A program made the position numbers and the translations under genes. The notes under the pieces are model-generated. The model saw only the letters and a program-made list of their open reading frames with translations, had not been told where the DNA came from and did no database searches. DNA of 47,697 nt from Candidatus Nanopelagicales bacterium (GTDB lineage Bacteria > Actinomycetota > Actinomycetes > S36-B12): the NCBI GenBank assembly GCA_023263845.1, contig JALQUH010000013.1, forward strand, positions 1 to 47,697, read 5' to 3'. Positions 21,872 through 36,458 of this stretch are shown in pieces (positions within the stretch are counted from its first letter, which is position 1; each line of letters starts with the position of its first letter).

Positions 21872-22493
21872 GGTCCACCTCCAATCGGCGTCGCATGCGG
21901 TCTAGGGAACGGCGTATATGGCTCTTGACGGTCCCGAGCGGCAGGTCGAGCCGCTCGGCGATCTCGGCGTGCGTCAACTGTTCGTAGAACGCCAGCCGCA
22001 TGATCGTGCCGGGCGGCTCCCCGAGCCGCTGCAGTTCGTCGGCGATGAGAATACGGTCAACGGCGTCGTCGACAGGAGTGATTGCGACACCGGGATCGGG
22101 TGTGTCGTCGGGAATCGGCTCGCGGGAGCGCTGTGACCAGCGGTCGGCGATGCGGCGCCGGGTGATGGTGAGCAGCCAGCCCGGCAGCGACCCCCTTGTC
22201 GGGTCGAAGGATGCTCGGGAGCGCCAGGCTGAGGCAAAGGCCGCTTGGGTGATGTCGGCGGCCTCGTCGGCGTTGCCGGTGGCCCGGCGGGCGGTGGAGT
22301 AGACCAGGGGCGACCAGCGCTCGTAGACGGCGGCAAAGGTGGGCTCGCCACCGGTGGCGAAAGACTCGGCAAGGCGCTGGTCGGCGAGATCGGGGTCGCC
22401 CGGCCGGTCGACCGGGTCGGCCATGGTCATCGTGGCCCAGCCTCCCCTCCGCAGGCGTCGTTCGGCGTCTAGGCGCACCACTGTGCTACTCAT
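21858..22493 (-). CDS. ECF sigma-70 factor (SigK-like)
   Basis: Region 2 (DITQAAF...W...FDP...WLLTI) and region 4 (THAEIAERLDLPLGTVKSHIRR). Start is 22493 (ATGA overlap) or 22430 (GGAGG RBS). Confidence 0.92.
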   Translation of the reverse strand: MSSTVVRLDAERRLRRGGWATMTMADPVDRPGDPDLADQRLAESFATGGEPTFAAVYERWSPLVYSTARRATGNADEAADITQAAFASAWRSRASFDPTRGSLPGWLLTITRRRIADRWSQRSREPIPDDTPDPGVAITPVDDAVDRILIADELQRLGEPPGTIMRLAFYEQLTHAEIAERLDLPLGTVKSHIRRSLDRMRRRLEVDREAL

Positions 22494-23263
22494 GGAGTCT
22501 GCCCCGATTCGGCCTCGATTGCTACCGGGACTGCGGTGACCACGATGTTGTCGGTGTAACTCAAGGCGGACGGGTCGAACGGGCCGCCACAGGTGATGAG
22601 GGTGAGCCGACTCGGCCCGGAGCGCGAGAAGAGTTCCCGCAGGGGGACACGGTTCTTGTCGAAGGCCTCGCGCGAGACAACCTCGTAGCGGATGGTGCTG
22701 CCATCCACGCGGTCGACGGCGATGCGATCACCCGGTGTGAGGGAACCGAGGTCGATGAACGCGCCGGCGCCCTGGTCGACTCCATCGCGGTGTCCGACGA
22801 TGACCGTCGATCCTTCACCGCTGCCGGGCTTGCTGCTGAAGCGATACCAGCCGGTACGGCCTACATCGACCGGCACCTCAACCTGGCCCTGGGTGTCGAG
22901 GCCGACGACGTCGACCGGGGTGTTCAGGTCGAGAGCGGGGATGCGCAAAGTCTCCGGGCGTGGAGTCCGGTCGGGTCGAGGGAGCTCGGTGGCGTCGCGG
23001 CGGTCGAGACTGCGATAGGGGGAGTTTGTTGTCGGATCGGCCACAATTGACGGAGCAGCGCCGGTGTCCGCCGAGCCGGAGTTGTCTTGTGATGCGTCAC
23101 CATCTTGGTCAACAGAAGTGCCCGCGATGTCCGGGGTGGCAGGGCGACTGCCGACGGAGTCCACATGCATGCCCGACCCCGCCGATGCGAGGCCCACCGT
23201 GCCGAGGCCAAGTGCGAGAGCACTGGCCGCGAGCACGAGGATCGCGGGGCGGGGTCGGGTCAT
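22490..23263 (-). CDS. Class F sortase
   Basis: N-terminal anchor; motifs GWY, PG...VIVGHRD, and catalytic LTLITCGG followed by Y-x-DN. Confidence 0.92.
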   Translation of the reverse strand: MTRPRPAILVLAASALALGLGTVGLASAGSGMHVDSVGSRPATPDIAGTSVDQDGDASQDNSGSADTGAAPSIVADPTTNSPYRSLDRRDATELPRPDRTPRPETLRIPALDLNTPVDVVGLDTQGQVEVPVDVGRTGWYRFSSKPGSGEGSTVIVGHRDGVDQGAGAFIDLGSLTPGDRIAVDRVDGSTIRYEVVSREAFDKNRVPLRELFSRSGPSRLTLITCGGPFDPSALSYTDNIVVTAVPVAIEAESGQTP

Positions 23264-23328
23264 GATGTGTCCTACCTACTCGTTCGTCAGGAACTCATCG
23301 TTCTGAGTGAACTGATCCGGATGGTGCG

Positions 23329-24150
23329 TTAGTTGCGGCTTGCGGCCAGGCGGGTGCCTCCGGCCACGACCCCGGCAGCGCCGACGGCGGCCAGCGCCAC
23401 GGCCCACAGGGGAAGTCCGGCAGTGGAGCCACCACCGGCGGGCACACCCTCGGGACCATCGGAGACACCGGAGATGACCTGGGTAGCCAGAGCGAGGTTC
23501 TCCTCGGCAGCCGAACCCCACGCGTAGGCGATGGTCACGGTGCCCTCTTCGAGCATGACGCCGGCCGGTCCAAGCACCGTGGTGTCGGTGCCCATGAGGT
23601 TCACCGAGGCCTCGTAGTCGCCCGCGGGCACCTCGGCCATGTCCTCATTGGGGTTGGTGAGATCACTGAAGAGCACGTTGCCATCAGCCAACACATCGAC
23701 GGCCGGTGCGGCAGCGATGTGACGAACAATGAGGCGAGCCCCACCGGCAGCGAGCGAGCTCACGTCGTTCACGAACACGTTGAGCGCGGGATTGCCATCG
23801 GCATCCAGATTCGCCGTGACGGTGGCGTTAATGCCACCGGGGACGGTGACACCCTCAGCGGCGAGGACCGGATCGGCGTCGTCAGGGGTCTGGCCGTCGC
23901 CGAAGACCGCGAGGTCGTAGTCACCCGCGGGGACCTCGACGGTCTGCAGGGTGCCGGGGGTGAAGTTATCGATGAGCAGTTCGCCGTTGGCGAAAACGTC
24001 GACGACATCGGCTCCGGCGCCCTCCGGGATCGCGTGGAGGACGGACACGGTGGCCATGTCGGCGGCCTGCGCGGGCAGCGCCACCAGGCCGAGGGGCAGG
24101 GCGACCGCGGCGGCAGCGATGCCGGCGCGGGTGATGGAGCGTCGGGTCAT
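23329..24150 (-). CDS. DUF4397-domain secreted protein with C-terminal sorting signal
   Basis: Signal peptide ending AQA; two repeats (V-x-HAIP...VDV and VRHIAAAPAVDV); C-terminal GVPAGG followed by a TM and a basic tail. Confidence 0.88.
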   Translation of the reverse strand: MTRRSITRAGIAAAAVALPLGLVALPAQAADMATVSVLHAIPEGAGADVVDVFANGELLIDNFTPGTLQTVEVPAGDYDLAVFGDGQTPDDADPVLAAEGVTVPGGINATVTANLDADGNPALNVFVNDVSSLAAGGARLIVRHIAAAPAVDVLADGNVLFSDLTNPNEDMAEVPAGDYEASVNLMGTDTTVLGPAGVMLEEGTVTIAYAWGSAAEENLALATQVISGVSDGPEGVPAGGGSTAGLPLWAVALAAVGAAGVVAGGTRLAASRN

Positions 24151-24201
24151 GGAGAGCACCTTCCGATTGGGCGGTCGCGGTCGACCGTCTCTGTGTGGTT
24201 C

Positions 24202-24230
24202 TTCCGTGCGAGAGACCCGTTTGGATGCGG
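24202..24230 (-). promoter_or_regulatory. Candidate SigK-type ECF promoter for the DUF4397-sortase-sigma operon
   Basis: Minus strand reads CCGCATCC-N16-CGGAA with an AT-rich tract upstream. It resembles the CCGATCC.../GAA motif reported for mycobacterial SigK. Confidence 0.5.
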
Positions 24231-24309
24231 TGAGTTAAGAAAACTTTTCAACTCGCGCCGCCGGATAACCCGGGTTAGCGTGTTGTGTTGACGCACGGAA
24301 GGACAGCAC

Positions 24310-24744
24310 ATGGCTCGGGTTGAGTTCACCGCGCGCAAGCAACTTCGTCTCCCAGCGCAGTCCGTGTACGACGCTCTGGTGAATTGGCGTGGGCACGCCG
24401 ATTGGGTCCCGATGACCCGGGTACGCATCGAAGAAGGTGACGGCGGTGTCGGAACGGTCTTCATCGCCACGACGGGGCTTGGCCCGGCTGCCCTTCCTGA
24501 CCGCATGCGGGTCGAAGCCCTGGACGCAGAGGCCATGGCGGCCGATCTCGTCAAGATTGGTCCCGTCTTGCGGGGCGACGTACGCATTGCTGTTTTGCCG
24601 CTGAGCAATACGACGTGCGAGGTGCAATGGCACGAGGACATCACGGTCCCGGTGCTGCCGAACTTCGCCGCGCCCCTGGTGGCCGCCGCGACCCAGAAGG
24701 CGTTCGAGAAGTCTCTGGATCGACTGGCCAAGCGACTTCGCTAG
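24310..24744 (+). CDS. SRPBCC/START-like family protein
   Basis: Motifs W-x-x-HADWVP-x-T, GVGTVF-x-A-x-TG, D-x-M-x-V, K-x-G and W-x-E. GAAGGA RBS. Confidence 0.8.
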   Translation: MARVEFTARKQLRLPAQSVYDALVNWRGHADWVPMTRVRIEEGDGGVGTVFIATTGLGPAALPDRMRVEALDAEAMAADLVKIGPVLRGDVRIAVLPLSNTTCEVQWHEDITVPVLPNFAAPLVAAATQKAFEKSLDRLAKRLR

Positions 24745-25121
24745 GCGAGGACCACCGGGAGCGATCGCAGGCCGTGGATCATGCGGCCTGCGTTCTGCCG
24801 CGCGGGCCCAGCCGTTCGCCAGGCGGCAACGTCGGGGAAGCGCTGCAGCAGGTGTCGCCATGCGACCTCGGCTTCCATGCGCGCGAGAGCGGCGCCCAGA
24901 CAGTGGTGCACGCCGAATCCAAAGGCCAGATGTCGCCGGGCATTGTCGCGGTGGATGTCGAAGGTGTCCGGGTCGACGAAGACTCGTGGGTCTCGGTTGG
25001 CTCCGGCCAGCATGAGCACGATGGTGCTCCCGCCCTCCAAAGTTGAGCCGTCCGGCAGCGCAATTGGCGCCAGCGCGTTGCGGAAAGTGAACTGCACCGG
25101 CGAGACGTAACGCAGAACTCC
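24741..25121 (-). pseudogene. Cytochrome P450, C-terminal fragment only
   Basis: Motifs (G)VLRYVSPVQ, ANRDPRVF-x-x-PD-x-FD and heme motif HLAFGFGVHHCLG. Everything upstream of the K-helix is absent. Confidence 0.85.
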
Positions 25122-25901
25122 TTAGACGTTCCACCAGACGGCAGCGAGGCGGCGCGGCATTCCAGCGTCGGCAGCTGCCGCTGCTGCGGCGACATCGCCG
25201 GCGCGATCAAGCGGCAGGCATAGACGAACGCAGGCAGCCTCGCCCTGCGCCTTCGGGTCTAGGGGAATGCGCTCGTAGACGTCATCGAATTCGACGAGGT
25301 GGGCGTCGTACCCCGTGTCGCGGATGACGGTGAGCGCATCGTCAGCAGTGGGGGAGTCGGGTCGATCAAGATCCCAGAACTGCTTCCACAGCGGGTTCAT
25401 CCAACTGAGGGGATGGCGCACGGGGAGCTCAAGAACGACCCGTCGGTTCGCGTGTGTGGTCAGTGCGCGCACGAAGTCGGGGAGCTCCCAGACGTTGTAG
25501 GCGACGTGATGGCAGACGACGACGTCAGCGGTCGGCGTCTCGGCTTCGACGTCGGGCCAGTCGCCAAGAATCTGTTCGCTGGCAACACCACGCTTGGCTG
25601 CTGCCTCGGCGAAGGCATCGAGCATGCCCTGCTGGTGGTCGACGCCGATGAGGAGCCCGGCCGGTGGGACCAGTGCGAGTGCGGCTCGACCTCCGCCACA
25701 ACCGACGTCGAGCACGGATCCGCCTGCGGGAAGGGCCTCACGCGCGGCGCGGTGCGATTGCGAGTCCGGGATGGGTCCGTCGGGAGCGATGAACTGGGCT
25801 ACCGGGTGAATCCACGGGTTTTGCGGTGCCTGCTCGAGGATCTCGTCGGGGATAGCCCAGGAGGCCAGGTCATCGCGCCACTTCTGCGCTGCCGTCGTCA
25901 T
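25122..25901 (-). CDS. Class I SAM-dependent methyltransferase
   Basis: Motif I VLDVGCGGG, GVD and ADVVVCHHV. TAGGAT is 6 nt before the ATG. Confidence 0.9.
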   Translation of the reverse strand: MTTAAQKWRDDLASWAIPDEILEQAPQNPWIHPVAQFIAPDGPIPDSQSHRAAREALPAGGSVLDVGCGGGRAALALVPPAGLLIGVDHQQGMLDAFAEAAAKRGVASEQILGDWPDVEAETPTADVVVCHHVAYNVWELPDFVRALTTHANRRVVLELPVRHPLSWMNPLWKQFWDLDRPDSPTADDALTVIRDTGYDAHLVEFDDVYERIPLDPKAQGEAACVRLCLPLDRAGDVAAAAAAADAGMPRRLAAVWWNV

Positions 25902-25930
25902 GTGTGAATCCTATGCGTCAGGATGGGTGT

Positions 25931-26725
25931 GTGGACCCCTCGGAACTTGGTGCGCAGATCATCGCCGCCCGTACGGCCGGTGAGTTGCTTGATGCGCCAC
26001 TCGATCACGGCTTCGATTCCGGCGCGGCGTACGACGTCCAGCAGATGATCACCGACTGGCGCTTGTCGCGCGGTTTGACGATCGCCGGCTGGAAGCTCGG
26101 CTACACCTCGGCAGCCATGCGCGAGCAGATGGGTATTGCTGAACCCAACTATGGGCCGCTGCTGTCGGACATGATCCTGCCGTCGGGAGTGACGGTGCCA
26201 TCGATAGGCGAGTCGGTGATCGATGAGCGTGGCCGCTTCGGTGTCGTGCATCCGCGTGTGGAACCGGAGATCGCGGCGGTGCTCGCGCGCGATGTCACGG
26301 ACCCGCATGACATCGATAGCGCTGTTGGCGAGTGGCGGTTGGCGATAGAGGTCGTCGACTCGGTGTGGCGCGACTACCGATTCGATTGGGCCCTGAATAC
26401 GGCGGACGGTTCGTCGGCGGCGTACGCCGTGATCGGCGATGCGGTGGCCGATCTGGGCGACCTGGAGGTGGAGATCGAGGTGGCGTCTGCCTCAGGGGAG
26501 GCCGAGGTGCGCCACGGTCGGGCGGATGCTGCGATGGGCGATCCCCGTCATGCCCTGCACTGGCTCGCGGAGCAACTGACGTCCGCTCGCGAAGTGGGGG
26601 AACCGGTGTTGCGGGCTGGTGATGTCGTCATCACGGGGGGATTGACCCAGGCGTTGCCGCTACCGATCGGGGGAGTGGCCACCGCTCGTGCGGGTGCGGC
26701 GTCGGTCACAGTGGCGCGGGCATGA
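25931..26725 (+). CDS. 2-keto-4-pentenoate hydratase / FAH superfamily protein
   Basis: Motifs AYDVQ, GWKLGYTS, PRVEPEIA, EVVDS and GDVVITG. Confidence 0.88.
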   Translation: MDPSELGAQIIAARTAGELLDAPLDHGFDSGAAYDVQQMITDWRLSRGLTIAGWKLGYTSAAMREQMGIAEPNYGPLLSDMILPSGVTVPSIGESVIDERGRFGVVHPRVEPEIAAVLARDVTDPHDIDSAVGEWRLAIEVVDSVWRDYRFDWALNTADGSSAAYAVIGDAVADLGDLEVEIEVASASGEAEVRHGRADAAMGDPRHALHWLAEQLTSAREVGEPVLRAGDVVITGGLTQALPLPIGGVATARAGAASVTVARA

Positions 26726-26728
26726 CCA

Positions 26729-27190
26729 TCACGACAGATGCTTCCACGCGTCGTCGATGAGCCATAGGTTCTGCCGACCTTCAACGGTCGGTGGCAGCAC
26801 CTGCTTAAGGAGTGCGCAGACCTTCTCGGCATCGTTGCGTGAGATCAGCGTCAACTGGGCAGTGCACTGCGGCGTACTGATGACCAGGTCGACGCGCGGC
26901 ATCCCGCGGCCGGCACCCTTCGGGGTGACGGCAAGTACCTGGATGCGTGTGACATCTGTCCAGGCCAGGCGCTGATTGCCGGCGAGGGAGAGGCCACGCT
27001 CATTGAGCTGCCAGGGGCGCAGTGCGCGCGCATAGGCAAGGAGGCCAGCCACAACAAGAATTCCTCCGAGGATGATGGCCGGAAGTGAGCCGCGGAATCC
27101 GCGCAGCGCGATGATGACGCCCACCGCCACCGTGGCGGCGGTCAAGAAAGTGGCCATGCGACTGTTGCGTCGCAGGCGTACCTCGCGCAC
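26729..27190 (-). CDS. Hypothetical membrane protein (2 TM plus PH-like soluble part)
   Basis: Fills the gap directly behind the gpx gene; two hydrophobic helices then L-x-W-x-x-V. Start uncertain (GTG 27190). Confidence 0.55.
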   Translation of the reverse strand: MREVRLRRNSRMATFLTAATVAVGVIIALRGFRGSLPAIILGGILVVAGLLAYARALRPWQLNERGLSLAGNQRLAWTDVTRIQVLAVTPKGAGRGMPRVDLVISTPQCTAQLTLISRNDAEKVCALLKQVLPPTVEGRQNLWLIDDAWKHLS

Positions 27191-27194
27191 GTGA

Positions 27195-27689
27195 TCAGGA
27201 GTCAAGGAGCGCGGTGATGTCGCCGGCAATCTCCGACGGCTTGGTCGTTGGGGCGTAGCGCTTCACCGTGGTGCCATCGGGGGCGACGAGGAACTTGGTG
27301 AAGTTCCACTTGATGGCCGAACCGAGCTTGCCGCCCGCGCGATTCTTCACGTAGTCGAAGACCGGGTGTGTGTTGCTGCCGTTGACGTCGATCTTTGTCG
27401 ACAGCGGGAAGGTGATGCCGTAGTTGACACGGCAGAACTCCTCGATCTCGCCGTCGTTGCCCGGCTCCTGGTGGCCGAACTGATCGCACGGGAAACCGAG
27501 GACGACCAGACCGAGGGGGCCGAGTTCCTCATGCAGTTTCTGCAGGTCGTCGTACTGGGGGGTGAAGCCGCACTTGCTCGCCGTGTTGACCACGAGTACG
27601 GGCTTGCCGGTGAAGTCGGCCATCGGCACCTCGGCGCCGTGGTTGTCGGTGAAGGTCAGGTCATAGAGGGAGTCAGCCACGGACGTCAT
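27195..27689 (-). CDS. Glutathione peroxidase family (Cys type)
   Basis: Motifs VNTASKCGFTPQY, GFPCDQF-x-x-QEPG and KWNFTKF. Confidence 0.95.
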   Translation of the reverse strand: MTSVADSLYDLTFTDNHGAEVPMADFTGKPVLVVNTASKCGFTPQYDDLQKLHEELGPLGLVVLGFPCDQFGHQEPGNDGEIEEFCRVNYGITFPLSTKIDVNGSNTHPVFDYVKNRAGGKLGSAIKWNFTKFLVAPDGTTVKRYAPTTKPSEIAGDITALLDS

Positions 27690-27717
27690 TGTTCCCCGTG
27701 GCCAGGGCAGGCGCCTC

Positions 27718-27747
27718 TTGACGACTGTCGGACCCTGGGTCTACTGT
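27718..27747 (+). promoter_or_regulatory. Housekeeping-sigma promoter of the DnaE2 operon
   Basis: TTGACG (27718-27723), 18 nt spacer, TACTGT (27742-27747). Confidence 0.75.
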
Positions 27748-27763
27748 TCGAACAAGTGTTCGA
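27748..27763. promoter_or_regulatory. LexA (SOS) box
   Basis: TCGAAC-AAGT-GTTCGA is a perfect match to the actinobacterial consensus TCGAAC-N4-GTTCGA. It sits immediately after the -10 and covers the expected start site. Confidence 0.92.
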
Positions 27764-27814
27764 ATACCTGCTTCACGCGATCCACCGTGAGGAGCCCACC
27801 GCGAGGAGGTGACC

Positions 27815-28099
27815 ATGGCCCGACAGTACGCCGCCCCAGTGACAGACGTTGCTCTCACTGCTCGTCGGCCCATGCGGTTCACCTGGCAGGGCCGGGGGTA
27901 CGTCGTCACCGCCGTCCTCGGCCACTGGGTGAGCGGGGCTGCCTGGTGGCGGGCTCCGGAGCAGCCCAACGACGACACCCACACCTGGCGGGTGGAGGCC
28001 TTCCCTCGATCGGCGTCCCGTTCGGCGATCGCTCGCTCCGGGGTCTACGACCTGTCCTGCTCCGGCGAGGGCTGGACCCTGCACCGCATTGCTGACTGA
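27815..28099 (+). CDS. DUF6504 family protein (stand-alone ImuB-C-like domain)
   Basis: AGGAGG RBS; pattern P-x-x-F-x-W-x-G...V...HW-x5-WW...WRV...GVYDL...W-x-L...D. Confidence 0.8.
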   Translation: MARQYAAPVTDVALTARRPMRFTWQGRGYVVTAVLGHWVSGAAWWRAPEQPNDDTHTWRVEAFPRSASRSAIARSGVYDLSCSGEGWTLHRIAD

Positions 28100-28124
28100 C
28101 CTGCACGACCAGACCTGCACGACC
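28098..28124 (+). repeat. 13-bp direct repeat (GACCTGCACGACC x2)
   Basis: Exact copies at 28098-28110 and 28112-28124. Confidence 0.85.
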
Positions 28125-28143
28125 TAAACCGATGGGAGGCGTC

Positions 28144-28542
28144 ATGAGACCCACCACCCCCAGTGCCGACCTGCTCGCCGCCGCCCAGCGTGGATTGACC
28201 GAGGCTGCCATCGCTGAGACAGCGGGAGATCGCTACGCGCGGGCGCATCTGTCTGCATTGCGGTCGGCCGCCGCGGTGTTGGCGGCGCGCGCCCAGCCGA
28301 GCAAGGGCCGTGCGCGACTGCGCAGTGTGTGGTCAGTACTCGCGACTGTTGCTCCAGAGTTGGCGGAATGGGCCGATTTCTTCGCTGCCAGTGCGACCAA
28401 GCGTGCGGCTGCCGAGGCCGGACTGCCCGTCGTCTCCCAACGCGAGGCTGATGACCTCATGCGCGATGCCGAGATCTTCCACGACCAGGTGTGCGCACTG
28501 CTGCACATCGACCGGCAGCAGGCCCTGCCGGCGACGGGGTGA
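28144..28542 (+). CDS. SAV_6107 family HEPN-domain protein
   Basis: Motifs RYARAHLSALRSAAAVLA, W-x-x-L-x-x-VAPELAEWA-x-FF, KRAAAEAG and READDL. GGAGG RBS. Confidence 0.85.
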   Translation: MRPTTPSADLLAAAQRGLTEAAIAETAGDRYARAHLSALRSAAAVLAARAQPSKGRARLRSVWSVLATVAPELAEWADFFAASATKRAAAEAGLPVVSQREADDLMRDAEIFHDQVCALLHIDRQQALPATG

Positions 28543-28552
28543 GGCGCGTGCC

Positions 28553-31500
28553 GTGGAGTTCGCCCACCTCCACGTGGCGTCGGCGTATTCGCTGCGTCAC
28601 GGCGCTTCGATGCCGTCCGAGCTTGCCGCACATGCGGCCGAGCATGGTCAACCGCTGCTCGCGCTCACCGATCGTGACGGTGTCTACGGTGCGGTGCGCT
28701 TCGTTCAGGCTTGCGCGGCACACGGCATCGCTCCCGTCCTCGGTGTCGACCTAGCGCTCGACCTGCCACACGTTGGTGACGCTCAATCGCCTCTGCCTCC
28801 GGTGATTGGAGTGAGCCCGACCCGGGGCGGTGCGTGGGTGGACCCCCGCCACCCACGCGCCGTCCTCCTCGCCCGTGATCGACGCGGCTGGGCATCGTTA
28901 TGTCACCTCATCAGTGCGGTGCATTCGACGCGGGCGACCGAGGGTGGTCACGCCGATGCCCGCGGTGTTGCCGCGACCATGGAACAGATTGCTGCGCACT
29001 CCGATGGCCTCATCGCAATGCTTGGCCCGCACTCACCGCTCCTCGAAGCGCTTGCCGTGCAGCGACCGGATCTCGCTGACTCACTTGTTGCACCCTGGCA
29101 CGAGATCTTCGGCGACGCACTGCGCATCGAGATCGTCAGTCACCGTGCCCAGCGCGGCACCCTGTCCACGATCACTGCTGCGCGTGCACTCGGTTGGGCA
29201 CGTGAACGCGGCATCACCCCCGTCCTCACCCACGCCGTCCGCTACGCCACCCCGCGTCAGGCTCGCGTGGTCGACGTCCTGGACTCTGCCCGCCGACTGG
29301 TACCCCTTGACGAGCGACACCGGGACCGGCCCAACGCCCAGGGCTTCCTCGCTCCCACTTCCTTCATGGCTGAGATCGCCAACGAGATCGCCCGTGCGGC
29401 CGGTGCGGGTCGTCGTATTGCGCGTGATCTTCTTGTCGCTGCCGTCGAGACTGCCCAGGAGTGCGCGCTCACTCCCGCCGATCTCGGCATCGGCGAGATC
29501 GCCGTCCCTGAGTTAGACGTCATCACTTCTCCCGCGCGTGTCGAGTTGCGGGGCGAAAATTCACAAAATTCGCCCCGCAACTCAACACTCGGCGATGGAG
29601 ACAAAGAGGGGGATGCGCTGTTGCGGGCGCGTTGCGAACGGGCGCTGGATCGCTACCGCGGCGCCGAACGCATCGCGGCCCGCCACCGCCTTGAATCCGA
29701 ACTCCACACCATCGCCACCTTGCAGTTCGCCACCTATTTCCTCACCGTCGCTGAGGTCGTTGACCTCACTCGAGATCTCGGCATCCGCGTGGCCGCACGC
29801 GGATCGGGTGCAGGCAGCCTGGTCAACCACCTGCTCGGCATCTCCGGCATCGATCCGATGCGCTACGGCCTGCTCATGGAGCGCTTCTGCACCCCGCTAC
29901 GTCGGCAACTTCCCGACATCGACATCGACGTCGAATCCGCGCGACGTCTTGAGGTCTACGACGCGATCTTCGAACGTTTCGGCGATCAACGTGTCGCCAC
30001 CGTGTCGATGATGGAGACCTACCGCGTGCGCCACGCCATCCGCGATGTCGGAGCGGCCCTCGCCCTACCGCCCGGTGAGGTCGACGCCCTCGCCAAGGCC
30101 TTCCCACATATCCGCGCGCGCGATGCGCGCAATGCTCTGCGCGACCTGCCTGAGTTGCGCACCTCCGGCCTCGGTCGCATGACCGAGCGCGGTGAACTCG
30201 ATCATTTCTGGGAACTTGTCGAAGGCCTGGATGGCCTGCCCCGTCACGTCGCCATGCATCCCTGCGGTGTCCTGCTCTCCGACACCAGCCTGCTCGATCG
30301 CACCCCGGTCGAGCCCAGTGGCCAGGGCTACCCGATGAGTCAGTTCGACAAGGACGATGTCGAGACCCTCGGTCTGCTCAAACTCGACGTCCTCGGCGTC
30401 CGCATGCAGTCCGCCCTCGCCCACGCCGTCGCCGAGGTCGAACGCGTCGACCACGAACAGGTTCATCTCGATGCGGTCCCACTCGATGACCCGCTCACCT
30501 ACGCGCTCATCTCCTCCACGCACACCCTCGGCTGCTTCCAGATCGAGTCACCCGGTCAGCGCGAACTCGTCGGCAAGTTCGCCCCATCGACCTTCGACGA
30601 CATCATCATCGACATCTCGCTCTTCCGTCCCGGCCCGGTGAAGTCCGACATGGTCACGCCCTTCCTCAAGGCACGTCAGGGCTGGGCCGATCCGATGTAC
30701 GTCCATGACGATCTGCGACCGATCCTCGCCGAGACGCAAGGTGTCGTGGTCTTCCACGAGCAGGTGCTCCGCATTGTGGCCACCATGACCGGCTGCTCCC
30801 TCGCCGAAGCCGACGAGACCCGACGTGCGATGGGGTCACCGCAGGGGCAGGACGACGTACGCGCCTGGTTCTATCCCGCCGCCATCGCACACGGCTATGA
30901 CCTCGTGACCGTCGAGAAGGTGTGGGAGGTGCTGCGTGCCTTCGCCTCCTTCGGCTTCTGCAAGGCCCATGCGGCAGCGTTCGCACTGCCCACCTACCAG
31001 TCGGCGTGGTTCAAGGCCCACCACCCGGCGGCCTTCCTGGCCGGCGTCCTCACCCACGATCCGGGGATGTATCCCAAGCGGCTCATCCTCGACGACGCCC
31101 GCAACCTCGGCATCGCGATCCTGCCGCTCGACGTCAATCGATCGGGTGAGACGTACTCCATCGAGCGTGTCCTGCCCGGCGACGAACCACCACCATCAAT
31201 CCTCGGCGCACCGTCACGCTCGGCTCCACCGCCGGAGTTGCCCGACGGTCGCGACTACGGCATCCGCCTCTCCCTCGCCGACGTCAAGGGCATGAGCGAG
31301 GCCGAGATGCAGCGCATCGTGGCGCGCCGGCCGTACTCCTCGCTGTCGGACTTCTGGCATCGCGCTGCGGTGAGTCAGCCGATCGCCGAGCGGCTCGTCC
31401 TCGCTGGGGGATTCGACTCGCTGTATTCCATCGATACCGCGTACGCCGTAGACCTCGGTCCACATCTGCGTCGCCGCCACCGAGTGACTCGACGCGACCT

Positions 31501-32272
31501 GCTCCTGCAGGTGGCTGATCTCGCCCGCGGTGGCCCACGACGCGCGAAGACCGAGAGTCATGTCGAACAACTCAGTTTCGATTCCCTACAGGTCGATGCG
31601 CCGCCACCCATCACCGGGCTGCCGGAGATGGGTCCGGCCGATCGGGTCCGTGCCGAGTTGGAGATCCTCGGTCTCGACGTCAGCCACCACGTCGTTGACT
31701 TCTACGCCTCCATGCTCACCGCACTGAGTGCGATGCATCCACCGCTGGTGCGTGCCCGCGATCTGCTCAGTTGCCGCTCGCAGGGCCAGATCCTCATCAG
31801 TGGGGTCAAGGTCGCCACCCAGACCCCACCGGTGCGCTCCGGGCGCCGTGTCATCTTCACCACCCTCGACGATGCGACCGGCCCGGTCGATGCCACCTTC
31901 TTCGATGACGCCCAGGGTCCCTATGCCAGCACCGTCTTCGGCTCCTGGCTGCTGCTGGTGCGCGGTGAGGTACGCCGTACCGGCCCGCGGGGAGTGTCGG
32001 TGCGCGCCACCGGCGCCTGGGATCTCGGCGTCGTCCACGAGGTGTGGTCGGCCGGGGGAGTCGACGCGGTGCGCGACCTCATCGATGGCTCACCGCAGCC
32101 GACCGCGCAGGCTGGATCACGTCGGGTCCTGGTGCATGCCTCCGGTTTCCGGCAATCGCCGTACGCCGACATCAAGCCGGCCGGCGAGGATCCCGGGCGG
32201 ATACCGGGTGGCAACCGGACCCCCGCTCCCGCAAAACTGTGGCACTCCAGTCCCGGGAGCAGCGGATGGTGA
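28553..32272 (+). CDS. dnaE2: Error-prone DNA polymerase III alpha paralog (DnaE2 type)
   Basis: Degenerate PHP domain (HLHVAS, TDR, THAVRY); RGSGAGS; catalytic PDIDID and KLDVLG; FQIESPGQ; GFCKAHA; OB fold. Lies behind a LexA box. Confidence 0.9.
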   Translation: MEFAHLHVASAYSLRHGASMPSELAAHAAEHGQPLLALTDRDGVYGAVRFVQACAAHGIAPVLGVDLALDLPHVGDAQSPLPPVIGVSPTRGGAWVDPRHPRAVLLARDRRGWASLCHLISAVHSTRATEGGHADARGVAATMEQIAAHSDGLIAMLGPHSPLLEALAVQRPDLADSLVAPWHEIFGDALRIEIVSHRAQRGTLSTITAARALGWARERGITPVLTHAVRYATPRQARVVDVLDSARRLVPLDERHRDRPNAQGFLAPTSFMAEIANEIARAAGAGRRIARDLLVAAVETAQECALTPADLGIGEIAVPELDVITSPARVELRGENSQNSPRNSTLGDGDKEGDALLRARCERALDRYRGAERIAARHRLESELHTIATLQFATYFLTVAEVVDLTRDLGIRVAARGSGAGSLVNHLLGISGIDPMRYGLLMERFCTPLRRQLPDIDIDVESARRLEVYDAIFERFGDQRVATVSMMETYRVRHAIRDVGAALALPPGEVDALAKAFPHIRARDARNALRDLPELRTSGLGRMTERGELDHFWELVEGLDGLPRHVAMHPCGVLLSDTSLLDRTPVEPSGQGYPMSQFDKDDVETLGLLKLDVLGVRMQSALAHAVAEVERVDHEQVHLDAVPLDDPLTYALISSTHTLGCFQIESPGQRELVGKFAPSTFDDIIIDISLFRPGPVKSDMVTPFLKARQGWADPMYVHDDLRPILAETQGVVVFHEQVLRIVATMTGCSLAEADETRRAMGSPQGQDDVRAWFYPAAIAHGYDLVTVEKVWEVLRAFASFGFCKAHAAAFALPTYQSAWFKAHHPAAFLAGVLTHDPGMYPKRLILDDARNLGIAILPLDVNRSGETYSIERVLPGDEPPPSILGAPSRSAPPPELPDGRDYGIRLSLADVKGMSEAEMQRIVARRPYSSLSDFWHRAAVSQPIAERLVLAGGFDSLYSIDTAYAVDLGPHLRRRHRVTRRDLLLQVADLARGGPRRAKTESHVEQLSFDSLQVDAPPPITGLPEMGPADRVRAELEILGLDVSHHVVDFYASMLTALSAMHPPLVRARDLLSCRSQGQILISGVKVATQTPPVRSGRRVIFTTLDDATGPVDATFFDDAQGPYASTVFGSWLLLVRGEVRRTGPRGVSVRATGAWDLGVVHEVWSAGGVDAVRDLIDGSPQPTAQAGSRRVLVHASGFRQSPYADIKPAGEDPGRIPGGNRTPAPAKLWHSSPGSSGW
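29538..29588. repeat. Palindromic element inside dnaE2
   Basis: GTGTCGAGTTGCGGGGCGAA, 11-nt loop AATTCACAAAA, then TTCGCCCCGCAACTCAACAC: a 20-bp stem with one mismatch. Confidence 0.9.
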
Positions 32273-32309
32273 CCCGTTCGCGCGAAGATGTCCTGGTGAG
32301 GTGCCGGGC

Positions 32310-33545
32310 ATGAGCCGCAGCCAGATCCGCCGCGTGGCGAGTCAGACCGACCTCGGCTCCGACGACAGCGGCTGCACGATCCTGCACATCGACATGGATG
32401 CTTTCTATGCCTCCGTCGAACTCATCACCCGCCCGGAGTTGCGCGGCAAGCCCGTCATCGTCGGCGGCGGTGGGCGCGGCGTCGTGCTCTCTGCCACCTA
32501 CGAAGCCCGCGCGATGGGCGTGCATTCGGCGATGCCGATGTCCCGTGCCCGGAGGGCTGCACCCGACGCCATCGTCATCGAACCGAGCCATCACCGTTAC
32601 GCCGAGGTCAGCGCTGGAGTGATGGCATTGTTCAACTCCATCACTCCACTCGTCGAACCGCTCAGCCTGGACGAAGCCTTCCTCGATGTCTCCGGTGCGT
32701 GGCGCCGACTCGGCTCACCGACGGCGATTGCTGAGTTGATCCGTGCCCGCGTGTACGACGAGCAACGCATCACCTGCAGTGTCGGTGTTGCCCCGACCAA
32801 GTTCGTCGCCAAACTCGCCTCTACCCAGATCAAACCTGACGGTCTGCTTGTCGTTCCGGCCGACAAGGTCGTGTCTTTCCTCCACCCGCTGCCGGTTGGT
32901 GCGCTGTGGGGGGTGGGGGAACGTACCGAGGAGCGCCTGATCTCCCTTGGCCTGCGCACCGTCGGCGATATCGCCCACACCCCGGTCGACACCCTCACCC
33001 GCGCCCTCGGCCAATCCGCCGGTCAGCGGCTCTATGACCTGTCCTGGGGGCGTGATGACCGCGATGTCATCCCCGATGTTGCCGAGAAGTCCATCGGCAA
33101 CGAGGAGACCTTCGGCCGCGATGTTGACGATCCCGAGGTGGTTGCCCGCGAGTTCCTCCGGCTGTCGCAGAAGGTGGCCGCGCGCGTACGCCGCCAGGGT
33201 CTTCTCGGCCGCACCGTGGTGATCAAGGTGCGGTTCGCCGACTTCACCACCATCACCCGCTCCCGCACCCTGCCCGAACCGACCGACGTCGGCCAGGTCG
33301 TCTACGCGACTGCTCGGGAGCTCTATGCGGCCCTCGGGCTGCAGCGGGCTCGCATCCGCCTGGTCGGTGTCCGCCTAGAGGGACTCATCGAGGAGTCGGC
33401 CCGGACCGAGCAACTGCTCTTCGACGCGCCCGGATCGGACACGCCAGCCGATCGGCGGGCCGCTGAGGTGGCGGCCGACCGGCTGCGGGACCGATTCGGT
33501 GATGACGTCGTGCGGCCGGCCCGGCTGTGGAGCGACCCCGAGTGA
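32310..33545 (+). CDS. dinB: DNA polymerase IV (Y family)
   Basis: Motifs ILHIDMDAFYASVE, YEAR-x-x-GV-x-S-x-MP, SLDEAFLD, AKLAS-x3-KPDG, KSIG-x-E-x-TF and RLVGV; clamp motif QLLF. Confidence 0.95.
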   Translation: MSRSQIRRVASQTDLGSDDSGCTILHIDMDAFYASVELITRPELRGKPVIVGGGGRGVVLSATYEARAMGVHSAMPMSRARRAAPDAIVIEPSHHRYAEVSAGVMALFNSITPLVEPLSLDEAFLDVSGAWRRLGSPTAIAELIRARVYDEQRITCSVGVAPTKFVAKLASTQIKPDGLLVVPADKVVSFLHPLPVGALWGVGERTEERLISLGLRTVGDIAHTPVDTLTRALGQSAGQRLYDLSWGRDDRDVIPDVAEKSIGNEETFGRDVDDPEVVAREFLRLSQKVAARVRRQGLLGRTVVIKVRFADFTTITRSRTLPEPTDVGQVVYATARELYAALGLQRARIRLVGVRLEGLIEESARTEQLLFDAPGSDTPADRRAAEVAADRLRDRFGDDVVRPARLWSDPE

Positions 33546-33742
33546 GGGCTGCCCGGCGGGCTGATTGTGCGCTGAGGGTGCGGATTCTCGGCCTTCCGGG
33601 CGCCCCATCGGGGCCCGGCCGCCGCCGCCGGCTCGTCCAGAGGCCAGCCACTGGAGGAATCCGGACCGAATCCGCCATCCCGGGTTTCCAGATGCGGCCG
33701 GGGTGCCTATCCTTAGACCAGTACCGGTGAAGGAGGTGTCAG

Positions 33743-34147
33743 GTGCCGCTGTCCGAGCATGAGCAACGTCTGCTGGAGCAGATGGAGCAGGCCCTCTATG
33801 CCGAGGACCCCAAATTCGCTACGTCGTTGCGCAATACCTCCGGCGGGCGCGCCAGCCGCGGTCGCGCCGCCCTTGGCGTCCTGATCCTCATCGCCGGTGT
33901 GGCCATGCTCATGGGCGGTGTCGTTGTTCCGCTGATCCCCCTCGGGGTTGCCGGGTTCGTCGTGATGACCGTGGGTGCCACGCTTGCCTACCTCGGACTG
34001 CGTTCTCGCCCCGCGGCTGCGGCCCAGAGCGCCGAGGGCGACCCACAGGCGCCCCAGGGCAACGGCCCACGCGCCCCGAAGCAATCCTCCGGCTTCATGA
34101 ACAACCTTGAAGATCGCTGGCGCAAGCGTCGCGATCAGGACTTGTAG
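33743..34147 (+). CDS. DUF3040 domain membrane protein
   Basis: MPLSEHEQRLLEQMEQALYAEDPKFA, two TM, and FM-x-x-LEDRW-x-x-R. AAGGAGG RBS. Confidence 0.92.
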   Translation: MPLSEHEQRLLEQMEQALYAEDPKFATSLRNTSGGRASRGRAALGVLILIAGVAMLMGGVVVPLIPLGVAGFVVMTVGATLAYLGLRSRPAAAAQSAEGDPQAPQGNGPRAPKQSSGFMNNLEDRWRKRRDQDL

Positions 34148-34160
34148 GCCACGCCCTCCG

Positions 34161-36458
34161 CTAAACGCCCGCGGTTTCCCTCTGCGGCGCCTGCTCGATC
34201 TGCTCCCCACCACCGATGAGCGAGCCCGGCAACAGCACACTTCGCAACCGAGCGCGCCGGTCCGCCGCAACCCATGCCGCTTTTCGCAGGGTGGCCAGAT
34301 CCTGACGCAGCTCAGCCGGGGCGGATGCGACGATCTGCTCCGGCGCGGCGTAGCGCACCTGCTCCACCCACCACACCAATCGCCGCAGCGCTGCGCGCTC
34401 GTCCTCGCCGAGCGGCATCTGCTGGACCAGGCGGTTGCTTGCCTGCCGCGGTGTGTCAGCGATCGACCAGCGCCATCCCAGATCCCGCACCTCATCGCCC
34501 CATTCCTGCCAGGTGCCCTCGATTCGGGCTCGAGGGTCGGGCAGGGACGTACGCCGGCGTCGACGCCAGCGCACCGCGAGACCGGGTAGGGCGAGCAAGA
34601 GCGCGAGCGTGACCAGCACCGCAACGATCGACCACACCGGCAGCAAACTCCCGCCGCTAGTGGCGGGCGCGGCATCGACACGATCGGCCGGAGTGGGCTG
34701 TGGTGCCGTGGGCTCGTTAGCTGCGTTTGGCGACTGGTCGCGGCTGCTGCCGTAGTCCGGTTGTGTCACGCCGGCGCCGATTCGAGGTGTCGGTTCAAAC
34801 CGCACCCATCCGATGCCGGACATCCACAATTCTGGCCACGCGTGCGCGTTGCGGGCCTGAACGACGTACGTGCCGTCGTCATCCTCCACCCCCGAGGTGA
34901 AGCCGATCACCACGCGTGAGGGGATACCGACCGAGCGCGCCATCAGCGCCATCGTTCCGGCGAACTGCTGGCAGTATCCGATGCGCTCGTCGAGGAAGGA
35001 CTGCAACGGATCGGCACCGGGCGGCGTGATCACCTGCGTGCTGTAGCTGTAGCCGCCATCGCGGGTGAAGTAGTCGACCAGCGCACGGGCCTTCGCATAC
35101 GGCGTGTTCGCGTTCGCCGTGACCTCATCCGCGATGCGGGCCAGGTCCGGCGTGAGCCCATCCGGAAGCGCCAGCCACGGAACGAGGGGATCCGGGGCTC
35201 GTTTGATGGCATCGCGAAGTTCGGCCCGGGTGGGATCGAGCTGGTACGCCGTCACGGCGTACGTCGACCCCGCAGCGGAGACGCCGGATCCCGCCACCGT
35301 GCGGGTCTGGGGATCCCAACTCCACCGGTCATCAAGTGGCTCGCTGATGCCACGAACAGCCGTTGCGGCGTACGGCACTGGCAGTTGGGCGTTGTCCAGG
35401 TCGCTGATCGCGATGTCGGCGGTGAAGTCGGGGAGCTGGGCGACCCCGGGGGCGTCTGGCGGCGCGAGTTCTTCGCTCAGCGGCGTCCGCACAGCCACGT
35501 CTCCGGCCCGCCAGGTCTCTCCGTCGAACTCGTCGAGCACGACGAGGCGGAGGTAGTCGGGGGCGGGGGCATCGGTGGTGTAGCGCAGGACCTCGCGTTC
35601 GGGATTGTCGACCAGATCCCGGCGTAGCGTGACGAACGGGTCGATGCTGACCGGTCCGCTGTCGCCGATGCCGGGTCGGGACCCGGAGGAGCTCACGAAC
35701 ACCGGCTCGCTCAGGCCGGGAATGAAGGTCGGCAGGAGTACGGCGGCGAGGATCGCCACGATGGCGGCTTGGAGCGCGAGCAGTCCGGACCAGGCCGAGG
35801 CGCGCGCCGCCCGGGGATGGGCGCTCGATCCTGCGGCGGCGCCGGTCGGTGCCGCAGGGCGCGGGATAAGAGGCCCCCATGTGCGGGCGTCATCTCGAGC
35901 GTCGACCGCCAGAAGAAGCAACCACCCGGATACCGCGATGGGCAGCAGCCACCAGGTGACCCCGCCGGGGATGACGGCCGCCGGTAGCGCGTACACCAGC
36001 AGCAGGGGCGCGCCGGCCAGGGCTGGCAGCCGCAATGTCACGCCGATGGCGTCCACGACGAGGGCCACCAGCCCGAGGCCACCCACGGCAAGGAAGACCA
36101 GCGTTGGATCGGTGGGCACCGGGGAAAGAACCGTCTCCGCTTCGGTGAGTGCGGTGCGGGCGAGGTCCTGTAGCTCGCCGATGGCCATGGGGCCGGGCAG
36201 GAACCCGAGCACGGCGGCGGGCTGCACGTAGAGCCAGGTGAGCCAGGTGAGGAGCACAAGCAACTGGGCAATCGGCTGCAGTGGCGGGGTCAGGGCCACG
36301 GCGCGGGAGAGGGCGCCGGTGAGCGCGACCAGGAGAACGGCGACAAGGGTCGGGGCCACCCAGGACAGCCCGGCGAAGAGCGGGATGACGCTCACCGCTG
36401 CGGTGACGGTGGCCAAGGCCGCCGCGGCGGTGGCGCCCGGCCGCATGCGCGCGATCAA
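34161..36458 (-). CDS. Membrane transglutaminase-like protein (TgpA; DUF3488 + TGase core + DUF4129)
   Basis: N-terminal TMs; catalytic motifs GYCQQFA, AHAWPE and W-x-x-FEPTP; C-terminal TM. Confidence 0.92.
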   Translation of the reverse strand: MIARMRPGATAAAALATVTAAVSVIPLFAGLSWVAPTLVAVLLVALTGALSRAVALTPPLQPIAQLLVLLTWLTWLYVQPAAVLGFLPGPMAIGELQDLARTALTEAETVLSPVPTDPTLVFLAVGGLGLVALVVDAIGVTLRLPALAGAPLLLVYALPAAVIPGGVTWWLLPIAVSGWLLLLAVDARDDARTWGPLIPRPAAPTGAAAGSSAHPRAARASAWSGLLALQAAIVAILAAVLLPTFIPGLSEPVFVSSSGSRPGIGDSGPVSIDPFVTLRRDLVDNPEREVLRYTTDAPAPDYLRLVVLDEFDGETWRAGDVAVRTPLSEELAPPDAPGVAQLPDFTADIAISDLDNAQLPVPYAATAVRGISEPLDDRWSWDPQTRTVAGSGVSAAGSTYAVTAYQLDPTRAELRDAIKRAPDPLVPWLALPDGLTPDLARIADEVTANANTPYAKARALVDYFTRDGGYSYSTQVITPPGADPLQSFLDERIGYCQQFAGTMALMARSVGIPSRVVIGFTSGVEDDDGTYVVQARNAHAWPELWMSGIGWVRFEPTPRIGAGVTQPDYGSSRDQSPNAANEPTAPQPTPADRVDAAPATSGGSLLPVWSIVAVLVTLALLLALPGLAVRWRRRRRTSLPDPRARIEGTWQEWGDEVRDLGWRWSIADTPRQASNRLVQQMPLGEDERAALRRLVWWVEQVRYAAPEQIVASAPAELRQDLATLRKAAWVAADRRARLRSVLLPGSLIGGGEQIEQAPQRETAGV

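Follow-up and report, generated by a model that had tools for sequence, protein, structure and literature searches.

The reading frame at positions 27815..28099 (+ strand) of a 47,697-nt stretch of DNA from a Candidatus Nanopelagicales bacterium (contig JALQUH010000013.1; this whole stretch is called the window below) most probably encodes a stand-alone ImuB C-terminal domain protein (ImuB-C, Pfam family DUF6504), which would be the product of the first gene of a LexA-repressed operon and an accessory protein docking onto the polymerase DnaE2. The locus would then be an instance of the published DnaE2B-[ImuB-C]-PolY-RecA module. The gene, imuB-C, is followed by a HEPN_SAV_6107 family gene, dnaE2 and polY, in this order and with gaps of 32, 10 and 37 nt. 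The idea of a stand-alone ImuB-C working with DnaE2 has been in print since 2013, when the protein was defined and operons that join it to DnaE2 were noted (PMC3765255). A 2019 paper described variants lacking ImuA that carry a PolY, either active or inactive, a stand-alone ImuB-C and/or a DnaE2 (PMC6511836), and in 2026 a 'fourth DnaE2B group' (active PolY, stand-alone ImuB-C, RecA), reported from Actinobacteria only, was modelled with AlphaFold (PMC12926913). The window adds one freshwater Nanopelagicales instance to this mutasome type, so far known only computationally, and offers a concrete testable interface, ImuB-C W38, W44 and W45 against DnaE2 residues 197–282.

The imuB-C frame runs from an ATG at 27815 to a TGA at 28097–28099, giving a product of 94 aa. 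A Shine-Dalgarno sequence, AGGAGG (27804..27809, + strand), lies 5 nt 5' of the ATG and is kept in 8/8 aligned leaders. Pfam DUF6504 (PF20114) matches the protein with E 1.9e-11 and 44.5 bits (curated cut-off 24.2), residues 16–94 being aligned to profile positions 24–103, and the same match scored 43.2 bits in a genome-wide profile search; the NCBIfam search of the protein gave no match. Fourteen close relatives (68–87% identity) were found in the protein collection, and phmmer against 1.84 billion representatives returned 234 matches at E ≤ 1e-3, nearly all of 85–160 aa. The frame is retained in 16/16 related genome loci with 70–100% identity. It is a real, conserved gene, not an open reading frame (ORF) arising by chance in a high-GC genome. 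Start, stop, Shine-Dalgarno sequence, Pfam match and conservation all bear out the 94-aa frame of the original prediction, which had been made from the sequence alone.

The protein carries the motifs P19-M-R-F22-T-W24-Q-G26, V34-L-G36-H37-W38-x5-W44-W45, W58-R59-V60, V77-Y-D-L80 and a terminal W87-x-L89-x4-D94. All of them had been listed in the original prediction and are present, with the terminal spacing corrected here from x3 to x4. Three residues, P19, W38 and W45, are the same in all 74 stand-alone homologues of the alignment, and F22, V31, V34, W44, W58, R59, V60, G76, L80, W87 and D94 are conserved in at least 90%. Judged by this alignment, the motifs are conserved columns of the DUF6504 family.

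The relation of this family to the C-terminus of ImuB was studied with profiles. Since phmmer reached nothing ImuB-like, canonical ImuB genes were then taken from plasmid loci found by tblastn with the window's DnaE2, and a 'DNA polymerase Y family protein' was accepted as a canonical ImuB where its gene is flanked by an ImuA/RecA-like gene on one side and an 'error-prone DNA polymerase' on the other. PF20114 matched the extreme C-terminus (last 55–80 residues) of 3/6 canonical ImuBs at E < 0.01, namely Methylocella ImuB at residues 432–504 of 507 (30.4 bits, above the cut-off), Roseomonas ImuB at 407–483 of 486 (22.0 bits, below it) and Agrobacterium ImuB at 427–481 of 503 (17.7 bits, also below it); the remaining 3/6 showed no PF20114 match. 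In hhalign, the profile of the 74 stand-alone proteins matched that of 14 ImuBs with a probability of 88.7% and E 2.6e-6; stand-alone residues 2–65 were paired with ImuB 413–479 of 507, and P..F.W.G lined up with the WW block of ImuB. A distant ImuB-C relation was likewise found in 2013, with E about 1e-4 to 1e-5 by hidden Markov model (HMM) comparison (PMC3765255). By these profiles, the link of DUF6504 to the ImuB C-terminus is real but distant. The identity claimed in the original prediction, a stand-alone ImuB C-terminal domain, is thus supported by the PF20114 matches on three ImuB C-termini and by hhalign, the profile comparison that it had proposed as a check having found the ImuB-C match.

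A word-based search for fused forms (alignment A1) gave one protein among 8000 scored candidates (P0164, 765 aa, PF20114), and a word-based search started from an ImuB C-terminus brought up nothing beyond close ImuBs of Rhizobiaceae. Of these, the 120 listed were 75–95% identical and had no precomputed PF20114 match. NCBIfam contains no ImuB model, and the Pfam name DUF6504 is absent from the searchable literature, so it has never been tied to ImuB-C there. The Methylocella plasmid ImuB (locus L054, record positions 118502–120025) is called 'DUF6504 family protein' in RefSeq; automatic names therefore hide ImuB identity.

The AlphaFold2 (AF2) model of the protein, built from the 74-row alignment, had a mean local confidence (pLDDT) of 84.2 and a predicted TM-score (pTM) of 0.72, with strands at residues 7–15, 18–24, 27–40, 55–64, 76–83 and 86–93 and a short helix at 69–74. 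It describes a beta-rich domain of about 80–100 residues without a catalytic pattern, the conserved columns being Trp, Pro, Gly and hydrophobic residues. Sequence searches of the PDB gave no match for the protein or for its profile, and ImuB profiles matched only Y-family cores there. Foldseek with the model found no clear solved relative (best E 0.16), and the best hit of a wide VIA-align search (Z 5.5, a cystatin, root-mean-square deviation 2.6 Å over 65 residues) lies within the tool's stated noise. This absence of solved relatives agrees with the description of ImuB-C as a beta-barrel without close PDB relatives (PMC12926913). The link to YqjX suggested in the original prediction is not supported by that paper. 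UmuD' of Pol V and YqjX/YolD of YqjW are alike in outline, each being a small accessory protein, rich in beta strands, that serves an SOS translesion polymerase, but they are unrelated to ImuB-C, whose barrel is set apart from the SH3 barrel of UmuD'/YqjX (PMC12926913).

Gene neighbourhoods were compared in 16 related Nanopelagicales loci, in a phylum sample of 201 genomes and in a class (Actinomycetes) sample of 301 genomes. In the related loci the same order was found, with HEPN in 15/16, DnaE2 in 15/16 and PolY in 9/16, all misses being contig ends. DUF6504 occurs in 79/201 genomes of the phylum sample and in 155/301 of the class sample (at E ≤ 1e-5), and HEPN_SAV_6107 in 13/201 and 230/301, respectively. 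For the phylum sample, the 30 top-scoring DUF6504 loci were inspected with 1.5 kb on each side, and a DnaE-type N-terminus was found to start downstream, on the same strand and within 1.5 kb, in 26/30; HEPN lay between in 3 of these 26 and not in the other 23, and the other 4/30 loci had no DnaE within reach. DnaE2 was directly downstream of ImuB-C in 23/24 sampled loci from many families (L060–L062, L065–L084 and L092). A DnaE2-like neighbour was found in 0/12 HEPN loci without ImuB-C (L058, L059, L085–L091 and L093–L095), the absence of ImuB-C being based on Pfam genome searches and, for L085–L095, also on an HMM built from A1. A DnaE only 31–35% identical lies 2.5–3.4 kb away in L088 and L091 and is probably the replicative one. 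From these figures (23/24 against 0/12 loci, and 26/30 in the phylum) ImuB-C tracks DnaE2, the tallies being counts and not statistics because related genomes are not independent.

Adjacency of ImuB-C and HEPN was also counted in the class sample, using the best 150 places of each family; for 84 genomes both places were listed, and in 74 of them DUF6504 was directly upstream of HEPN on the same strand, with 68–536 nt (median 132) between the Pfam matches. The ten exceptions were seven genomes of family f62 and three fragmented assemblies. Eighteen such pairs from different families, chosen as pairs and not by DnaE2, were examined, and 17/18 continue with DnaE2 (54–62% identical to that of the window) and PolY; L081 showed no such continuation within 9 kb of the pair. 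The phylum tallies include genomes flagged as unpublished (G148, G001, G120, G174, G018 and G048), as do the class tallies (G448, G213, G240, G233, G205, G222, G229 and G227). Without them, a hand recount of the listed rows gave 22/26 for DnaE adjacency, 71/81 for ImuB-C/HEPN adjacency and 19/26 for the LexA box described below; none of the loci compared in the 23/24 and 0/12 counts is from a flagged genome.

Some variants of the arrangement were noted. L083 (G457, family f62, large genomes) has ImuB-C followed by DnaE2, without HEPN and without PolY within 9 kb, and resembles the 'fifth DnaE2B group', linked only to ImuB-C (PMC12926913). L084 (G236, family f96, 1.3–1.5 Mb genomes) has ImuB-C, DnaE2 and PolY without HEPN. 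In L023, L026, L032, L039 and L040, from other classes of the phylum, 0.5–1.2 kb without a HEPN match separate ImuB-C from DnaE2, which leaves room for another small gene; ORF calling in these gaps gave only wrong-frame junk. In a Streptomyces plasmid DnaE2 context, neither ImuB-C nor HEPN is annotated.

The complex of the two proteins was predicted with DnaE2 residues 1–620 (14-row alignment) and ImuB-C as the partner (74 rows). The interface score ipSAE was 0.77 in each of three runs, and the best of 3 controls reached 0.00. This mark is reached by 116/157 solved complexes and 2/215 mismatched pairs, benchmark counts that hold only roughly here because the alignments were those of this analysis. 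The runs had at least 97% of contacts in common and the partner pLDDT was at least 74. Interface residues of ImuB-C are 17, 36–41, 43–45, 48–49, 53–54 and 57, so that codons 36–45 (27920..27949, + strand; G-H-W-V-S-G-A-A-W-W) appear as the core of the predicted DnaE2-binding surface, by both the complex model and conservation. On DnaE2, contacts are predicted at 197–200, 205–206, 234, 237–238, 241, 252, 254, 260–263, 274, 278 and 282, with further ones at 502–503 and 550–551. The docking region, codons 197–282 (29141..29398, + strand), sits between the Pfam PHP match (5–197) and the polymerase-core match (357–615) and would correspond to the end of the PHP region. In the 14 DnaE2 sequences, D241, V242, L243, D244, R247–V250, D253, R255, D258 and R259 are invariant. 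Sequence searches of the PDB turned up no chain resembling ImuB-C, so the result is unlikely to be the recall of a solved complex.

The prediction supports binding of ImuB-C to the N-terminal half of DnaE2. In this it matches published AlphaFold models, which also place ImuB-C on the PHP domain of DnaE2: all 11 module types are modelled in PMC12926913, and the ImuB-C/DnaE2 PHP-domain interface is described there for the M. tuberculosis ImuA-ImuB-DnaE2 model. The DnaE2 partnership proposed in the original prediction thus gains support from gene co-occurrence and from a controlled complex model that places the GHW/WW motif at the interface.

Regulation by LexA was suggested by a perfect palindrome, TCGAAC-N4-GTTCGA (TCGAACAAGTGTTCGA, 27748..27763), the sole match in the window, which lies 52 nt before the imuB-C ATG. 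This consensus is that of the actinobacterial LexA operator. A match in the window on its own is weak evidence: shuffled windows had a mean of 0.17 sites, and 16/100 shuffles contained one. The 2.5-Mb genome holds two perfect sites, the second being upstream of lexA (contig C167), and the reversed control pattern gave one site. In addition, a perfect LexA box lies at most 87 nt upstream of imuB-C in 16/16 related Nanopelagicales loci and upstream in 22/30 of the best DUF6504 loci of the phylum sample. A possible promoter abutting the box was read by eye (27718..27747, + strand), with -35 TTGACG (27718–27723), an 18-nt spacer and -10 TACTGT (27742–27747).

The downstream genes complete the set. 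The dnaE2-type C-family polymerase gene (28553..32272, + strand, 1239 aa, GTG start at 28553, 10 nt after the HEPN stop) has the Pfam domains PHP, DNA_pol3_alpha, finger, HHH_6 and OB. NCBIfam models scored 641 bits (DnaE) and 615 bits (error-prone polymerase), both below the equivalog/subfamily cut-offs; the genome has two DnaE genes, the second and better-scoring one being on contig C270. The polY gene (32310..33545, + strand, 411 aa, DinB/Pol IV type) has Pfam IMS, IMS_C and HHH domains, and its NCBIfam DNA polymerase IV match is 396.7 bits (cut-off 367). The protein aligns with the solved Pol IV 7yll at E 3.3e-71, and DMDAF.AS.E and S.DEA.LDV are common to both. With its active-site motifs intact, PolY is apparently active, and it is the sole IMS match in the genome. 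The RecA (478 bits) and LexA genes are present elsewhere in the genome. The ImuA model matched RecA alone, below the cut-off, and ImuA and ImuB are given as 'not found' because the genome is 92.9% complete. By eye, the C-terminal tail of PolY (...AADRLRDRFGDDVV...) resembles the N-terminus of the genome's RecA (...ALAQIERQFGKGSV...).

Together, these elements suggest how the locus would work. Upon DNA damage, RecA-stimulated cleavage of LexA would lift repression of the promoter, leading to joint expression of the four genes. ImuB-C is predicted to use the face that carries its conserved G-H-W...W-W residues to dock onto DnaE2, at the N-terminal (PHP-side) region, acting as the accessory subunit that is supplied elsewhere by fused ImuB. 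Contact with the clamp, and perhaps with RecA, would come from the active PolY, as suggested by the literature and by the resemblance of its tail.

Among known systems, the closest is the DnaE2B-[ImuB-C]-PolY-RecA module (e.g., Tessaracoccus lapidicaptus, PMC12926913), which shares with the window a stand-alone ImuB-C, DnaE2, an apparently active PolY, an actinobacterial host, RecA in the genome and the lack of ImuA/ImuB. Nothing essential differs; in the window a HEPN_SAV_6107 gene, of which the searched text of that paper does not speak, sits between imuB-C and dnaE2; the DnaE2B class of that paper is phylogenetic, whereas the window's DnaE2 was matched by gene content. The ImuB C-terminal domain within the ImuA-ImuB-DnaE2 mutasome (PMC3765255, PMC6511836, PMC11791113) is homologous, with a beta-rich fold, the consensus motifs P..F.W.G, WW and C-terminal W in common with imuB-C and, as here, a predicted contact with the PHP side of DnaE2. 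In contrast to canonical ImuB, the ImuB-C of the window is a protein of its own, 94 aa long, with no inactive Y-family core attached, its chain has no RecA-N-terminus or clamp motif, and no ImuA partner was found in the genome. Assignment to the canonical ImuA-ImuB-DnaE2 mutasome was rejected, ImuA and a fused, dead ImuB not having been found and the Y-family gene being catalytically intact.

Two further systems are related. The Deinococcus SOS cassette lexA-imuY-imuB-C-dnaE2, in which ImuY and DnaE2 are required for UV mutagenesis, shares SOS control, a stand-alone ImuB-C of about 80 aa, a Y-family protein, DnaE2 and the lack of ImuA, but differs in a Y-family member predicted to be inactive, lexA within the operon and another gene order, with HEPN unmentioned in the accessible text (PMC8072749). 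Geobacter-type lexA-imuB-C-polY operons share a stand-alone ImuB-C and an active PolY under SOS control but have no DnaE2 in the operon (PMC6511836).

The gene between imuB-C and dnaE2 encodes a HEPN_SAV_6107 family protein of 136 aa (28132..28542, + strand; an alternative in-frame ATG start at 28144, after GGGAGG, is possible). PF18726 matches it with E 1.2e-32 and 112.8 bits (cut-off 27.2). The AF2 model is a helical bundle (pLDDT 89.4; helices 10–26, 31–53, 66–86, 88–95 and 103–123), whose best Foldseek rows are the minimal HEPN proteins 2hsb, 1wol and 1ufb (probability 0.97–1.0, TM-score 0.59–0.70), with weak E values of 0.13–0.78. At residues 34–39 (28231–28248), R34 is invariant and H39 is conserved in at least 90% of 24 sequences, with R-x4-H spacing, and this element lies in the second helix. 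The HEPN nuclease motif usually sits elsewhere. The only paper found to name SAV_6107 has it in a table, where it stands as an actinobacterial HEPN-M family that lacks the RX4-6H motif, with no context given (PMC3710099).

HEPN genes were also followed in loci without ImuB-C. In the ten such loci checked for polymerases (L085–L091 and L093–L095), a perfect LexA box lies 100–520 nt upstream of HEPN in 9/10 and a PolY orthologue (52–64% identical) downstream of it in 8/10; L058 and L059, from large genomes, have neither a LexA box nor a polymerase near HEPN. Since HEPN sits behind a LexA box and ahead of PolY with or without ImuB-C and DnaE2, HEPN_SAV_6107 could, as a tentative reading to which we give rather less than even chances, be a hitherto undescribed part of the actinobacterial machinery for SOS translesion synthesis, without catalytic function and serving as subunit, chaperone or regulator. 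In the searchable literature, no paper was found that links HEPN_SAV_6107, or HEPN at all, to dnaE2. The word 'HEPN' is also absent from the three ImuB-C papers, including the main text and part of one supplement file of PMC12926913, and a description of the HEPN_SAV_6107 gene as part of the cassette was not found. The family is usually preceded by a LexA box and accompanied by error-prone polymerase genes, but it does not appear in the searchable descriptions of these systems. If the reading is true, the published 'four-part' mutasome gains a fifth protein, and current models of damage-induced mutagenesis in Actinobacteria would be incomplete.

Other explanations of imuB-C were weighed against docking onto DnaE2. 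A role mainly in binding DNA and sensing lesions, so that repair enzymes are guided to damage, was proposed for ImuB-C in 2013, in place of one as a stable DnaE2 subunit, and stand-alone ImuB-C also occurs beside DinB, Ku/ligase, SplB photolyase and SRAP genes (PMC3765255). The family has conserved basic residues as well, such as R59 (at least 90%). Since a DnaE-type gene adjoins ImuB-C in 26/30 and 23/24 sampled Actinomycetota loci, and the complex model passed its controls and puts the most conserved residues into the protein interface, a mainly lesion-sensing role is considered unlikely, and the two roles do not exclude each other. Still less probable is that ImuB-C works chiefly with HEPN_SAV_6107, as a regulatory or toxin-antitoxin-like pair with the polymerases as mere neighbours. 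The solved folds closest to the HEPN model are those of minimal HEPN proteins, which are often members of HEPN-MNT pairs, and DUF6504 is directly upstream of HEPN in the 74/84 class genomes counted above. However, ImuB-C occurs with DnaE2 and without HEPN (L083, L084 and 23/30 phylum loci), HEPN occurs without ImuB-C in 12 sampled loci, and the family is listed as lacking the RX4-6H nuclease motif (PMC3710099). Finally, with 106 ORFs of at least 60 aa overlapping 22000–36000, mostly spurious, a chance, unexpressed open frame in a high-GC genome might be suspected; the Pfam match above the cut-off, the strong Shine-Dalgarno sequence, the 234 homologues, the conserved synteny and the confident predicted fold leave this explanation practically refuted.

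Some results weigh against imuB-C being a DnaE2-docking ImuB-C in an SOS operon. No ImuB-length protein with a C-terminal match was among the 234 matches of the single-sequence phmmer search; the long matches, which are few (P0018, with 935 aa and 9 matching stretches, P0051, P0071 and P0102), were outside this check. Only 1/6 canonical ImuBs exceeds the Pfam DUF6504 cut-off, and the profile link is moderate (88.7%) and limited to residues 2–65. The complex score is a model confidence and no measured quantity, obtained with DnaE2 residues 1–620 only and a shallow 14-row alignment. The RecA-N-terminus-like motif of PolY was seen by eye only, BLASTP of it against the genome's own RecA N-terminus giving no alignment. 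Similarly, the promoter is only a candidate, because it was read by eye while a consensus promoter scan of 27650–33800 gave no promoter-like sites. As for published work, mycobacterial ImuB-C is also predicted to touch ImuA', and removal of ImuB-C in M. smegmatis did not stop ImuA' binding (PMC11791113). The role of the Deinococcus stand-alone ImuB-C is called unclear in a review (PMC8072749), and the literature yielded no experiment with any ImuB-C protein of the stand-alone kind.

The leader of imuB-C, which is only 51 nt in this window, was studied for structure as well. Taken as 76 nt, it folds no better than shuffled sequences (z +0.97; 166/200 shuffles equal it), Rfam gave no match across the whole window, and the LexA palindrome was the sole common feature of 12 leaders from wider families. 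Within 27764–27812, TACCTGC just 3' of the LexA box could form a stem with the Shine-Dalgarno region (AGGAGGTG), and 8 Nanopelagicales leaders retain its 7 pairs. Compensatory changes number 0 among them, so the stem is not evidence of structure, and a structured leader finds no support in this window. Also present in the leader is a 13-nt direct repeat, CCACCG(T/C)GAGGAG, at 27782–27794 and 27796–27808, and other short leader duplications were seen in the relatives L011 and L020. The single terminator-like site of the consensus scan falls inside polY.

On its flanks (33743–36458 and 25122–25901), the cassette has methyltransferase and GPx genes on one side and DUF3040 and TgpA transglutaminase genes on the other. 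The lone HEPN gene of the large-genome relative L058 adjoins a methyltransferase and TgpA too, and these shared flanks suggest a conserved chromosomal neighbourhood. Further upstream, a 118-aa ORF (24741–25097, - strand) matches only the C-terminal quarter of a cytochrome P450 (positions 343–432 of 462, E 3.1e-16) and may be what is left of a gene, or a gene broken by a frameshift.

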